A stretch of DNA of 46,052 nucleotides. It comes from a virus. Lineage: Duplodnaviria; Heunggongvirae; Uroviricota; Caudoviricetes. The notes beneath the pieces were generated by a model. The model was not told where the DNA came from. It worked only from the letters and a program-made list of their open reading frames with translations, and made no database searches. A program made the translations under genes and the position numbers. The stretch lies in the IMG/VR virus record IMGVR_UViG_2671180885_000005; one strand, 5' to 3'. Below are positions 5,613 to 8,172 of the stretch, one piece after another; positions within the stretch are counted from its first letter, which is position 1; the number at the start of each line of letters is the position of its first letter.

Positions 5613-5975
5613 TTAACGACCTGCTGCGCGGAGTTTTCCGTCAGGCTCACCGGCAAGAGTCAGTAATTGTCCCTGGTCTTCCTGCAGAATAGTCAGGCGA
5701 CCACCGCGATTGACATACATCGGCGTTTCGGTGGTGTCTTCTTCGGAAATTTTCCCACGGTTAGTCGGGCGAACATATGAGAGTTTGTGTTTGATTTTCA
5801 CACGGTTCTCATCAAATGGTTCGATTTCCAGGTTGAGTGAGACCTTACCTTTGGTTTTCGTGTTCATCACACCGGAAGCGACTTCACTGAGAACTGCGCC
5901 GATTTTGGTTTCAAATACGCCGCCGTCCAGCTCCCCGATAAATGCCTGCACATCAGTACTGCGTTCGCTAGCCAT
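5613..5975 (-). CDS. hypothetical phage protein (120 aa)
   Basis: Internal ATG at 5975 (MASERSTDVQAFIGEL...) with AGGAG 9 nt upstream; the longer 226-aa ORF in the track runs through a GC-rich region with no start signal. Confidence 0.6.
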   Translation of the reverse strand: MASERSTDVQAFIGELDGGVFETKIGAVLSEVASGVMNTKTKGKVSLNLEIEPFDENRVKIKHKLSYVRPTNRGKISEEDTTETPMYVNRGGRLTILQEDQGQLLTLAGEPDGKLRAAGR

Positions 5976-6575
5976 TTTGCTGCTCCTCATCATATCGACC
6001 CTGCAAGGCCGATTAGTTTCTCCACAAAACAGAGAAGAACACCTGCGGTGGCAGCCGCCCGGATGGATTGGGTTATGAGCCCGTCGTCCGGTGATGCTCT
6101 TCTCTGTTTTGTAAAAAGAGCGGTACCAGCCGGAAGCAAGGGTACAAACTGGTACCGCCAGGACTACACACAGCATAAAGTTGTGGTGCCGGGTGCCTCC
6201 CGGTGCCTGGCGAAGGTTGCACACCAGACGGGTGGGTATCCACAGAAGGTCGACTGTCAGCCTCAACCTTAACCCGCGTGCGCTGAGCCGCATTCACCAC
6301 AACGCTAAGGATTCTCTCTGGTTGAAAATACTTAGCTGTTATGTGCCTGTCTTTTCACCACTTCAGGCTCGGTGGTATCCTTTTAAGCCCGTATACATAA
6401 AAGGAAAATCAAATGACTTTTGATGAAAAAGAACTTGATAATGCAATTAATAAAATCATCGTAACGTCGCTCTTTTCCTGTCTCAGCGACACTCAGCAGA
6501 AACAGTTCTACGAATCGGCTTTCAACATGATCGAGCGTTGTTGTTTCTGCGATGCCGACGAGTTACCTGAAAAAA

Positions 6576-6851
6576 TCAGGAAACAGTTGGCTGATGCTCT
6601 TCGAGTGCGACTTTCTGACCAATTTTCTGAAATGTGCTCTCCGAATTTGGACAAATAGAAAAAGGCCATTTCCATTCAGGGTCTGATGGAAATACTTCAG
6701 CCTGTTCCAAAGCACGGTGTAAAGAGAACACAACTCCAGCCATAATCTGATGTTTCCCATTGGTCCAGCTATCGCCGCTCTGATCTACAGGAGCGGCTAT
6801 GTCGTATGACCAAACGACTTCACCACTATTGTTTAAAATCTGGACTTTCAT
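6576..6851 (-). CDS. hypothetical protein (91 aa)
   Basis: ORF with GGAGG SD before the ATG at 6851, immediately after the upstream minus-strand gene; its 3' end overlaps antisense with the plus-strand ORF 6413..6658, so only one may be real. Confidence 0.45.
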   Translation of the reverse strand: MKVQILNNSGEVVWSYDIAAPVDQSGDSWTNGKHQIMAGVVFSLHRALEQAEVFPSDPEWKWPFSICPNSESTFQKIGQKVALEEHQPTVS

Positions 6852-7063: not shown

Positions 7064-7168
7064 TTGCGCTCTCTTACACATAGTATTTAACGAATCATCC
7101 GGTCATTCATACGCCACCGGCGGCTACTTCGTGGGCGTCCTGCCTGTTCGTTATCTTTGATATAAAAT

Positions 7169-7182
7169 CTAACTTAACTTAG
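7169..7182. promoter_or_regulatory. candidate OL operator (CTAAC-N4-CTTAG palindrome)
   Basis: 14-bp near-palindrome CTAACTTAACTTAG in the intergenic region downstream of the repressor gene; same motif as the two sites between cI and cro. Confidence 0.4.
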
Positions 7183-7247
7183 TTATTATGGCAAGAGAAA
7201 ACACCAAACTTTTCTTAGTTCGGTGCCTTAGTTAGAGAAGAGAGGTC

Positions 7248-7896: not shown

Positions 7897-7910
7897 CTAA
7901 GTAATCTTAG
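7897..7910. promoter_or_regulatory. candidate OR operator site 1 (CTAAG-TAAT-CTTAG perfect palindrome)
   Basis: Perfect 14-bp palindrome in the cI–cro intergenic region. Confidence 0.45.
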
Positions 7911-7945
7911 TTTTTATTGACCAAAGATAGATTTGTAATTAGCAT

Positions 7946-7959
7946 CTAACAAAACTTAG
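7946..7959. promoter_or_regulatory. candidate OR operator site 2 (CTAAC-AAAA-CTTAG)
   Basis: Second copy of the same motif 36 bp from site 1, just upstream of the cro SD. Confidence 0.4.
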
Positions 7960-7971
7960 TTTGGAGGGCGT

Positions 7972-8172
7972 ATGACAACTGACGATATCGAAAGCTACTT
8001 CGGCAGTATTGAGAAAGTTGCTGCTTTTTTCGGCATAACAACTGAAGCCGTTTATCAGTGGCGAAACCGTCCGGGCCAGTTAATTCCAAAAGGACGTGCA
8101 GCAGAAGCTGCATATAGAACTTGCGGACGGTTGCCATTTAAACCTGAGCTTTATGAAAAATCTAATGGATAA
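7972..8172 (+). CDS. cro: Cro-like / YdaS-like HTH regulator
   Basis: 66-aa ORF divergent from cI, SD GGAGGG before the ATG; HTH segment FGITTEAVYQWRNR. Confidence 0.75.
   Translation: MTTDDIESYFGSIEKVAAFFGITTEAVYQWRNRPGQLIPKGRAAEAAYRTCGRLPFKPELYEKSNG

Follow-up and report, generated by a model that had tools for sequence, protein, structure and literature searches.

A structured leader ahead of yfdP

The stretch of DNA considered here, positions 5976-6412 of a phage sequence of 46,052 bp (the whole of which we term the window), immediately precedes a yfdP-like gene and holds, on the minus strand, a branched hairpin, H, together with an RNA related to the STnc100 family and the intrinsic terminator that directly adjoins H. 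Very probably it constitutes the non-coding, highly structured leader of the block of genes from yfdP to int in an early-left operon. The window is an SfV-like prophage, in which the stretch is transcribed leftward from the promoter PL (start at about 7160). The tRNA-Thr(CGU) gene at 1369-1441, the only Rfam family in the window reaching its gathering score, and the adjoining int and xis genes place this prophage at thrW; the integrase, of the prophage tyrosine type (2622 to 1459), is the only one in the window, and both xis and int are on the minus strand. The stretch is 99.3% identical to its counterpart in Shigella phage SfV and 96-99% identical to those of SfII, SfIV and several E. coli phages, and 2785 of 5426 complete E. 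coli genomes contain a match to it. The regulatory genes are an S24/helix-turn-helix repressor (7874 to 7248) and a P22-Cro-like gene (7972-8172), and operator-like repeats ACTAAGTTnnGTTAGAT are common to 7167-7220 and to the cI-cro intergenic region at 7897-7962. From PL to int every gene is on the minus strand. The features are listed below in the order of leftward transcription.

7166..7194, minus strand: promoter PL, TTGCCA-17-TAGATT, identified by promoter scan, leftward and accompanied by OL operators
7091..7150, minus strand: leader element 'L', about 60 nt, AACGAACAGGCAGGACGCCCACGAAGUAGCCGCCGGUGGCGUAUGAAUGACCGGAUGAUUCGUU, beginning about 8 nt after the PL start
7081 to 6860, minus strand: open reading frame (ORF) for a ClpX-type zinc-finger protein
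6851 to 6576, minus strand: orf33, 91 amino acids
6345..6375, minus strand: 'PK motif', 31 nt, CCACCGAGCCUGAAGUGGUGAAAAGACAGGC, conserved across the loci fetched
6111..6333, minus strand: structured RNA of the STnc100 family (Rfam RF02076), divergent subtype, terminator included
6180..6303, minus strand: folded core of the STnc100-like RNA
6160..6179, minus strand: single-stranded linker UUUAUGCUGUGUGUAGUCCU, from the core to the terminator
6113..6159, minus strand: intrinsic terminator, GGCGGUACCAG, 19-nt loop, CUGGUACCGC, UCUUUUU
6024..6112, minus strand: branched hairpin H, about 100 nt, with the inverted repeat as its basal stem
6064..6085, minus strand: apex of H, GACGGGCUCAUAACCCAAUCCA, folding as a 3-bp stem with a 7-nt loop
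6016..6023, minus strand: GGAGAAAC, directly 3' of H, conserved in nearly all of 30 variants
5997..6010, minus strand: small hairpin GGCC-UUGCAG-GGUC, just 5' of the yfdP Shine-Dalgarno sequence
5973..5989, minus strand: Shine-Dalgarno sequence GAGGAG (5989 to 5984) and ATG (5975 to 5973) of the yfdP-like gene
5975 to 5613, minus strand: yfdP-like gene (PHROG 204, E = 1e-49; PGAP 'protein YfdP' in a 99.8% identical locus)
5547 to 4723, minus strand: yfdQ/DUF2303 gene
4622 to 4059, minus strand: gene for a yfdR-type HD phosphatase

Downstream of the yfdR-type gene follow more ORFs and then xis and int, on the same strand and all past the terminator.

A preliminary description of this DNA had presented the stretch as GC-rich and devoid of a convincing ORF, and this is borne out. 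The GC content is 0.55-0.59 over approximately 5950-6324 against 0.35-0.45 in the flanks, and the minus strand of 5960-6420 is predicted to fold with -184.8 kcal/mol (z = -6.6), a stability equalled by none of 100 shuffled sequences. ORFs of 49-80 amino acids are present on both strands, and yfdP could be extended in frame to an ATG at 6293, but no ORF of the stretch is conserved on comparison with phage ST64B and with the variants of the H module described below.

A decayed or frameshifted gene, or an N-terminal extension of yfdP beginning at that ATG, would be the one alternative incompatible with the others to be weighed here, which are not mutually exclusive. In its favour, PGAP records a 'frameshifted hypothetical protein' pseudogene at about 6300 to 5990 in the 99.8% identical locus, several phage records carry hypothetical proteins at this place, and the plus-strand ORF 6048-6272, antisense to the RNA, matches PHROG 3651 (a 162-amino-acid profile of unknown function) with E = 9e-50. 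The pattern of divergence is nevertheless not that of a gene. The window differs from ST64B by indels of 1, 1, 1 and 20 nt, a net frameshift by which each candidate ORF is interrupted or shifted; the H modules of different phages measure 112, 113, 114, 115, 116, 120, 131, 135, 138 and 139 nt and thus do not vary in multiples of three; substitutions within them track base pairing and not codon periodicity; and the minus-strand ORF of 75 amino acids has no PHROG match. We therefore regard the protein annotations over the stretch as artefacts of a GC-rich RNA region, and a decayed gene as most improbable. PHROG 3651 itself is probably spurious, being built from ORF calls over the RNA region and, to judge by the length of the profile, over the antisense of yfdP, while the RefSeq 'frameshifted hypothetical protein' is likely the same artefact; carried by about half of complete E. 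coli genomes, it is at the least an annotation error worth correcting.

The branched hairpin H

The feature by which the stretch first attracted attention was an inverted repeat, described as perfect over 14 bp (6025-6038/6098-6111) and enclosing 59 nt. Its place and the enclosed segment are as described; its length is 15 bp (6024-6038/6098-6112). No other perfect inverted repeat of 14 bp or more with a loop of up to 120 nt exists in the whole window, and the longest found in 300 dinucleotide-preserving shuffles of 5976-6412 measured 11 bp. In a repeat search the arms reach 25 nt, with 84% complementarity. The repeat forms, on the minus strand, the base of H, which has a predicted folding free energy of -47.8 kcal/mol. 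The basal stem measures 20 bp; the other parts of H are a helix CCGGA/UCCGG, a side hairpin GCGG...CCGC that varies, and the apical hairpin GGG-CUCAUAA-CCC. The 3' end of H is 48 nt from the yfdP ATG at 5975, in agreement with the distance of about 50 nt given earlier, as is the placing of GAGGAG at 5989-5984.

Many temperate enterobacterial phages have H, its pairing kept by compensatory changes. When IMG/VR was queried with the apex sequence, more than 120 contigs were recovered, with 77 different 160-nt versions, from which 30 non-redundant ones were aligned and scored against the structure drawn from the window sequence. In this alignment 95.4% of cells are paired, as against 37-53% when the partners are slid by one to three columns; ten pairs are altered on both sides (52 cells), and the covariation score was reached by none of 500 shuffles, so that conservation and covariation in related phages, which the preliminary description had proposed as a check, are amply documented. 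Cells with G.U outnumber those with A.C by 53 to 11, an excess which implies that the selected structure is that of the minus-strand RNA and neither that of the DNA nor that of an antisense RNA; the earlier description of the element as an RNA of the minus strand is thus upheld. The pair at columns 29/123 of the basal stem is a conserved mismatch, unpaired in 21 of the 30 variants.

The association of H with the PL leader system is likewise a property of the whole group. When 103 loci were fetched independently, by the PL-proximal leader element L alone, the H apex was present on the same strand, 258-1633 nt downstream of L, in 89 of them and on the opposite strand in none; the PK motif occurred in 80 and the STnc100 core in 34. 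Similarly, a terminator-like hairpin whose U run directly precedes H is found in 27 of the 30 variants, with many different stems. By contrast, the gene that follows is not fixed: the first ORF 3' of H is mostly yfdP-like and elsewhere yfdR-like, rdgC-like or xis-like, from which we conclude that the module is part of the operon leader and is not tied to yfdP. The earlier linkage of the hairpin to the gene at 5613-5975 is thus correct as to position and not as to specificity. The small hairpin between H and the Shine-Dalgarno sequence also varies while remaining complementary (GACC/GGUC, GGCGG/CCGCC, CGCC/GGCG and GCCCC/GGGGC), and its loop, UKGCAG, recurs, as judged by eye.

Several other identities were considered for this region. 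H is not itself a terminator, there being no U tract after it on either strand: GGAGAAAC follows on the minus and AAAAAGAG on the plus strand. Neither does GGAGAAAC precede a start codon at a fixed distance in any consistent manner among the 30 variants as read. A permissive Rfam scan over the hairpin region returned only noise (for example, DicF at 15.7 bits over the terminator), such that H matches no Rfam family, and a scan of 15 related loci found only a tRNA in one of them, L194, together with C4 and isrK elsewhere. The sequence GGCGGTAC resembles the RfaH ops element, and the U tract with ACAAAAC resembles boxA, but neither resemblance is kept in the variants, and no boxA or nut-like site is apparent in the early operon of the window. 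On inspection, pairing of the L element with H is limited to the palindromic CCGG and part of the variable side hairpin, and was therefore discounted. As a separate observation, C4 antisense RNA and isrK adjoin each other about 2.5 kb from H in loci L126, L127 and L195, an arrangement resembling the P1/P7-type immI or the Gifsy antirepressor control region.

The STnc100-like RNA, its terminator and the interchangeable cargos

Upstream of H the stretch holds a divergent member of the STnc100/PasD family, with a pseudoknotted core, a 9-bp closing stem, a linker and a strong intrinsic terminator. The full RF02076 model (positions 1-206) matches at 6333 to 6111 with 44.6 bits and E = 4.8e-8. The closing stem, P1, pairs GUUGUGGUG (6303 to 6295) with CACCACAAC (6188 to 6180); the P6 hairpin CCGGGAGGCACCCGG is at 6204 to 6190; the invariant core of the family, CACCGGGAGGCACCCGGCACCA, in which a hairpin CCGGG-AGGCA-CCCGG precedes CACCA and this closes onto a 5' UGGUG, is present as an exact 22-nt match at 6205 to 6184; and the 5' strand GUGGUGAAU with its hairpin, which the family requires, lies at 6303 to 6270. 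In addition, the loop of the penultimate hairpin contains CAACCUU, with which the segment AAGGUUG after P2, the first hairpin, can form a long-range helix. This helix is not present in the Rfam structure line. Over 29 distinct subtypes its mean longest length is 7.0, compared with 5.6 for mismatched partners, and since the sequences change while complementarity is kept, the pseudoknot is supported by covariation. Read in this way, the core may have the topology of a tRNA, with a closing stem, three nucleotides and a hairpin, a variable centre, and a 5-bp hairpin that runs directly into the 3' strand of the closing stem.

The 20-nt linker that leads from the core to the terminator recurs in near-identical form, AUUGCUGUGUGUAGUCUU, in many loci whatever RNA precedes it. 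By its position it is a candidate seed or Hfq-contact region; no complementary target for it was found within the window above chance. The terminator (predicted fold -21.2 kcal/mol) has an 11-bp GC-rich stem ending 1 nt before UUUUU and aligns with positions 175-206 of the RF02076 model. In ST64B of Salmonella, which has an STnc100-like element at the equivalent position upstream of its yfdP homologue, the terminator stem is entirely different and equally complementary, GUCGGCGUC...GACGCCGAC followed by CUUUUU, and IMG/VR variants likewise have unrelated but complementary terminator stems at the same place. On the plus strand no T run follows the terminator hairpin. None of this anatomy, that is, the STnc100-family RNA at 6333 to 6111, the terminator at 6159 to 6113 and the PK motif at 6375 to 6345, figured in the preliminary description. 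Among the functions offered there, a small RNA would apply to the STnc100-like RNA and not to the hairpin, while a conserved structured element upstream of the gene holds for the hairpin as proposed.

STnc100 and its relative PasD are small RNAs encoded by prophages of Salmonella and E. coli, STnc100 being present in multiple copies. In EDL933 there are 11 STnc100 copies, of which several are transcribed and one was Northern-positive (PMC5331693); one copy lies 75 nt after stx2B (PMC12370729), a placement we could confirm in phage 2851; and the STnc100 relative PasD is an abundant small RNA of enteropathogenic E. coli in Hfq RIL-seq (bioRxiv 10.64898/2026.05.13.724894). Canonical copies lie within late operons, each as a unit of promoter, RNA and terminator. 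For example, in one IMG/VR contig the promoter TTGAAA-17-TAAATT starts STnc100 at its closing stem, and the terminator is followed by holin and endolysin genes, a placement which we take to be that of the lambda PR'-tR' leader. The window copy shares with STnc100/PasD the full-model match, the core CACCGGGAGGCACCCGGCACCA, the 5' GGUGAAU with its hairpin, the closing stem and a terminator of its own, and is, as they are, prophage-borne and on the operon strand. It differs in the P2 hairpin, GCGGCUCAGCGCACGC instead of CCCCCUGUGCGGAGGGG; in its location in the early-left operon, whereas the canonical copies belong to the late region, where they follow stx2B or stand between a PR'-like promoter and the lysis genes; and in lacking an evident promoter of its own, being embedded instead in a longer conserved frame, GUUGUGG...CCACAAC. 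The SfV/ST64B copy is in this sense the early-operon version of the same RNA. PasB was rejected as the identity of the window RNA, as it sits among phage structural genes, and the search for a promoter of the STnc100-like RNA or inside H gave only weak matches (for example, CTGAAG-17-CATAAC), none of them conserved. Tandem pairs of STnc100 cores, often at a spacing of 484 bp, occur in other loci (L012, L019, L036, L050, L059, L070, L075 and L026/L060); in L026 and L060 the first copy is equipped with a terminator of its own and the second with a promoter of its own.

The frame GUUGUGG...CCACAAC upstream of the terminator accommodates interchangeable structured cargos, of which we distinguish at least nine types by eye, and in many loci the frame itself supplies the 3' arm of a further long hairpin of the H kind. 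The cargos include the STnc100-like core of the window and its relative in phage LLS, in which P6 has changed compensatorily to GGUGG-AGGCA-CCACC. In locus L194 (1077-1203, minus strand) the cargo is a tRNA body with acceptor, D and T arms, scoring 43.9 bits with the Rfam tRNA model, in which a 64-nt insert containing GGUUCAUAACC stands in place of the anticodon arm; L214 is similarly constructed. ARAGORN made no call on the tRNA-like cargos, that of L194 included. In L125, L142, L213 and L144 the cargo of the first long hairpin has two T-arm-like hairpins, for example CUGGUUCGAUUCCAG and GUCCGUUCAAUUCGGAC, suggestive of RNAs built from tRNA parts.

It may also be asked whether the repeat acts at the level of DNA, as a cruciform, as a site of recombination or cassette exchange similar to the integron attC (arms ...CAAC/GUUG...), or as a protein operator. 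The arm ends ACRCAAC...GUUGUGU do recur at the borders of the cargos in this frame, and BLAST mosaic breakpoints fall at or inside modules, for example at q253 within the terminator loop. Nevertheless, we consider a role of this type very unlikely. The preponderance of G.U over A.C is compatible only with an RNA of one strand; the orientation to PL is strict (89 same strand, 0 opposite); H nearly always adjoins the terminator U tract (27/30); the arms ACAAAAC/GUUUUGU depart from the attC consensus RYYYAAC/GTTRRRY; and the sole integrase of the window is not of the integron kind.

Proposed read-through and processing, and the initiator tRNA likeness

How, then, might these elements operate together? 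We hold, with somewhat more confidence than doubt, that the leader yields both a terminated STnc100-like RNA and, on read-through, a hairpin for double-stranded RNA processing or stability. Polymerase stopping at the terminator would release an STnc100-like RNA of about 190-220 nt, which could be a trans-acting riboregulator, as suggested by relatives in the family that associate with Hfq and are joined to mRNAs in chimeras. On induction, a terminator-resistant polymerase would read through, and H would form on the longer transcript. The sequence GGAGAAAC could lengthen the helix by pairing with the U tract of the terminator, through U.G and U-A pairs with GGAGAA, such that both would be absorbed into a duplex of about 27 bp. 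This duplex would serve as an RNase III-type element of processing or stability, parting the structured RNA from the yfdP-yfdQ-yfdR...xis-int message and defining the 5' end of the latter, so that the leader would probably control both the extent of transcription and the cutting of the message. Between processing and antitermination, both of which had been offered for the hairpin region, the former is what we infer.

The basal stem of H, at 20 bp and with 95% pairing across the 30 variants, is of the size that an RNase III-type site would need, about two turns (at least 20 bp) of mostly Watson-Crick double-stranded RNA. RNase III sites are familiar in phages, as in T7 R1.1 and the lambda N leader, and in the metY-nusA-infB operon of E. 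coli an RNase III hairpin lies between metY, encoding tRNA-fMet, and rimP. The stem of H, at 20 to about 27 bp and with its conserved internal mismatch, resembles the T7 and lambda sites, and its position between a terminated RNA and the first ORF is comparable with that of all three. The order of tRNA-like RNA, terminator, hairpin and genes could, in particular, be likened to that of metY, terminator, RNase III site and rimP; homology to the K-12 metY-rimP spacer was rejected, there being no sequence similarity. H differs from these sites in its branched top and near-invariant apex, and its cleavage is a prediction.

No N-like Pfam domain was found in the early-left ORFs tested, which makes RNA elements of the upstream leader the likely agents of read-through; the L element, the PK motif and other leader RNAs are natural candidates for a cis-acting antiterminator. 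The L element is found in 53 phage records of at least eight genera, unannotated in most of the rows listed, with hosts including E. coli, Salmonella, Klebsiella, Yersinia, Pectobacterium, Providencia, Aeromonas and Citrobacter, and in at least 120 IMG/VR contigs, always directly after the promoter, the promoters and operators themselves being of many unrelated types. Its closing stem covaries (GCGAA/UUCGC with ACGAA/UUCGU), and it belongs to no Rfam family at threshold. The PK motif contains the interleaved complementary pairs CCAC/GUGG and GCCUG/CAGGC, for which an H-type pseudoknot is possible; in 42 sequence variants both putative stems are essentially invariant while the linkers vary, so that there is no covariation by which to test this fold.

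Phage LLS, the yfdP, yfdQ and yfdR genes of which are homologous to those of ST64B, provides an instructive parallel. Its leader between PL and yfdP measures 560 nt, contains no ORF and has two terminators before any gene, in the order PL, PK motif, terminator 1, long hairpin 1, STnc100-related cargo, linker, terminator 2, H, small hairpin and yfdP. Ahead of terminator 1 nothing is conserved except the PK motif, which sets in some 15-25 nt from the predicted PL start. In the paper on the LLS genome the phage is described as having no N, and 'a put RNA-mediated mechanism' is suggested (PMC12315714).

Extended to the present locus, such a mechanism would mean that one or more of the PK motif, the STnc100-like core and the L element (7150 to 7091) binds polymerase and enables it to read through the terminator at 6159 to 6113 and later ones, the small RNA then being a by-product and H a part of the same device. 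The absence of an N-like domain and the arrangement in LLS both speak for this view, as does the position of xis and int past the terminator on the same strand. L stands directly after promoters of many kinds, as does putL, which is placed promoter-proximally (PMC9378689), and in other loci STnc100-type cores are found at +1 to +7 of strong promoters, followed by a terminator and the operon. Moreover, the near-invariant stems and loops of the PK motif and of the core are what would be expected of an RNA docking on a conserved surface of polymerase. The likeness to the HK022 put and HK639 putL-like RNAs is accordingly one of structured early-operon RNAs ahead of intrinsic terminators in lambdoid phages with no N found, and, for the L element and the LLS PK motif, of promoter-proximal position. 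It does not extend to sequence or to any obvious structure. With HK022 putL located via its published A3-G7/C15-U19 pairing and the HK639 RNA via its annotation, blastn-short found nothing beyond 10-mers, and comparison of folds, including by eye, revealed no correspondence. Other considerations also count against it. The PK motif, the L element and the STnc100-like core lie between the early promoter and the terminators, whereas H, to which the inverted repeat belongs, lies after the terminator that it abuts and hence cannot relieve it; canonical STnc100 copies reside in late operons already antiterminated by Q, where a second antiterminator would be needless, and accumulate as discrete RNAs; and the PK fold lacks covariation. 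We accordingly see in a put-like cis-acting antitermination a minor, though genuine, possibility.

The apex of H calls for separate consideration. The 14 nucleotides CGGGCUCAUAACCC (6083 to 6070) are identical to positions 28-41 of the initiator tRNA-fMet, comprising three G-C pairs and CUCAUAA of the anticodon arm; the exact match is to metY of K-12, annotated as 'tRNA-initiator Met(CAU)', and the initiator tRNA is present in four copies in every E. coli genome. In 500 shuffles compared with this single tRNA the longest match did not exceed 13 nt, a length reached once, for which reason the match is suggestive and not overwhelming. Among the arm-detected loci GGGCUCAU is kept in 76 of 77, the remaining one having CUUAU, while loop positions 6-7 (tRNA 37-38) vary between AA, UA and UC. 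The tRNA anticodon-stem pairs 27-43 and 28-42 are absent. Its likeness to the initiator tRNA implies for the apex a further, putative sequence-specific partner.

On a further view H would be a tRNA mimic, its apex read as the initiator anticodon arm by the 30S P site or initiation factor 3, by methionyl-tRNA synthetase, or by a tRNA-fMet-cleaving toxin such as the enterobacterial VapC, and would act as a translational operator for the downstream genes comparable with that of thrS or as a decoy sparing the initiator tRNA of the infected cell. The thrS operator mimics a tRNA anticodon arm, and VapC of Shigella/Salmonella, in work of Winther and Gerdes from 2011, reportedly cuts tRNA-fMet in the anticodon loop. 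Besides the identity itself, displayed at the tip of a hairpin, and the constancy of GGGCUCAU, this view draws on the neighbouring modules of tRNA parts, namely the tRNA body of L194 and T-arm-like hairpins such as GUCCGUUCAAUUCGGAC. The likeness to the thrS operator and to tRNA scaffolds is that of an anticodon-arm look-alike at a hairpin tip in a 5' leader and, with respect to scaffolds, of a sister module in another phage consisting of a tRNA body with a foreign insert for its anticodon arm. Unlike the thrS operator, however, the mimic in H is about 90 nt upstream of the Shine-Dalgarno sequence, not adjacent to it, and only three of the five anticodon-stem pairs are as in tRNA-fMet. The statistics are modest, as a 13-nt match arises once in 500 shuffles against a single tRNA and many tRNAs could have matched; position 37 is U in some variants (CUCAUUA, CUCAUUC), where tRNAs have a purine; and the likeness could simply reflect descent from a captured tRNA fragment and not function. 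On balance we think mimicry of this kind doubtful.

With regard to the reading that we prefer, in which a terminated STnc100-like RNA is followed by a processing hairpin, a number of observations weigh against it. The RF02076 score falls 2.4 bits short of the curated gathering score of 47, so that the RNA is not listed in a gathering-threshold scan. No convincing sigma-70 promoter was found by scan directly upstream of the STnc100-like RNA, and its compact, pseudoknotted, loop-conserved fold is atypical of Hfq-dependent small RNAs of the seed type. For the STnc100 family as a whole no function has been established in the literature (PMC12370729). The apex of H, being near-invariant, exceeds the needs of a signal for double-stranded RNA cleavage. 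Finally, in Klebsiella phage ST405-OXA48phi1.2 (L341, 2500-2700) an STnc100-like core, closed by an 18-bp stem, ACAGACCUUGCAAUGCAG..., begins 7 nt past the PK motif and leads straight to the first gene of a kil-containing early-left block, with neither terminator nor long hairpin; a phage with the PK motif and core only indicates that the modules can work apart.

A wider reading, which we advance tentatively and think rather unlikely in its entirety, would combine elements of the foregoing. The L element, the PK motif and possibly the STnc100 core would confer a terminator resistance similar in kind to that of put but unrelated to it, while tRNA-derived scaffolds, released by tRNA and double-stranded RNA nucleases, would act on translation initiation or as decoys for toxins directed at tRNA-fMet. 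The scaffolds in question would be the acceptor-like stem with its cargos (STnc100 core, tRNA body with insert, double-T-arm RNAs) and the hairpin tipped with the anticodon-arm mimic.

Some of what is described here is known: the STnc100-like RNA is a sub-threshold, divergent member of an existing family, and its terminator is ordinary. For the H module, the PK motif, the cassette frame and their tie to phages without a recognisable N-type antiterminator, a limited literature search and Rfam gave no match. As to how lambdoid phages without N, other than HK022 and HK639, pass their early terminators, the locus and its relatives supply testable candidates, namely the L element, the 31-nt motif, the covarying hairpin and the intrinsic terminators, of which there are one or two. 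Likewise STnc100, among the most often annotated of enterobacterial 'sRNAs', gains a new context and a refined pseudoknotted fold with a putative tRNA-like topology.

The leaders of related phages contain further elements between PL and the modules discussed. In L199, L219, L247, L291, L300, L311, L312, L317, L323 and L332 a small hairpin, GCGCCCnnnnGGACGC, comes after the L element and precedes CGCUCUUUAACAA; the latter is a perfect boxA of the rrn type, and the order boxB-boxA is also that of rrn, a hint of antitermination by host Nus factors in those phages. In L189, L196, L200, L224, L241, L252, L286, L287, L292 and L303 the interval from the L element to the PK motif holds about 200 nt of GC-rich sequence that appears structured, CUGACAGGUGUCUUCGGGAGGGGUUGCG...CCCCGCCCGAAGAUA, a second variant having GGGGUAACAGAGGCGCGGCCUGAUUAACCGC. 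Between a divergent gene start and the PK motif, L007, L017, L043, L080, L170, L176, L218, L221 and L222 have a duplicated TTGTTGTTGGGGA(A/T)ATAACCAGGAT, which may be an operator/promoter region.

In the window, the plus strand of the PK motif overlaps, as we read the sequence, a weak promoter-like TTCACC-16-TATCCT for the plus-strand ORF 6413-6658 (81 amino acids). This ORF and the minus-strand orf33 are convergent and overlap by 83 nt (6576-6658); each has a good Shine-Dalgarno sequence and a full-length PHROG match (phrog_3311 and phrog_3195, respectively), and the SfV record and PGAP annotate only orf33. In several other phages a small opposite-strand ORF similarly starts 30-60 nt upstream of the PK motif.

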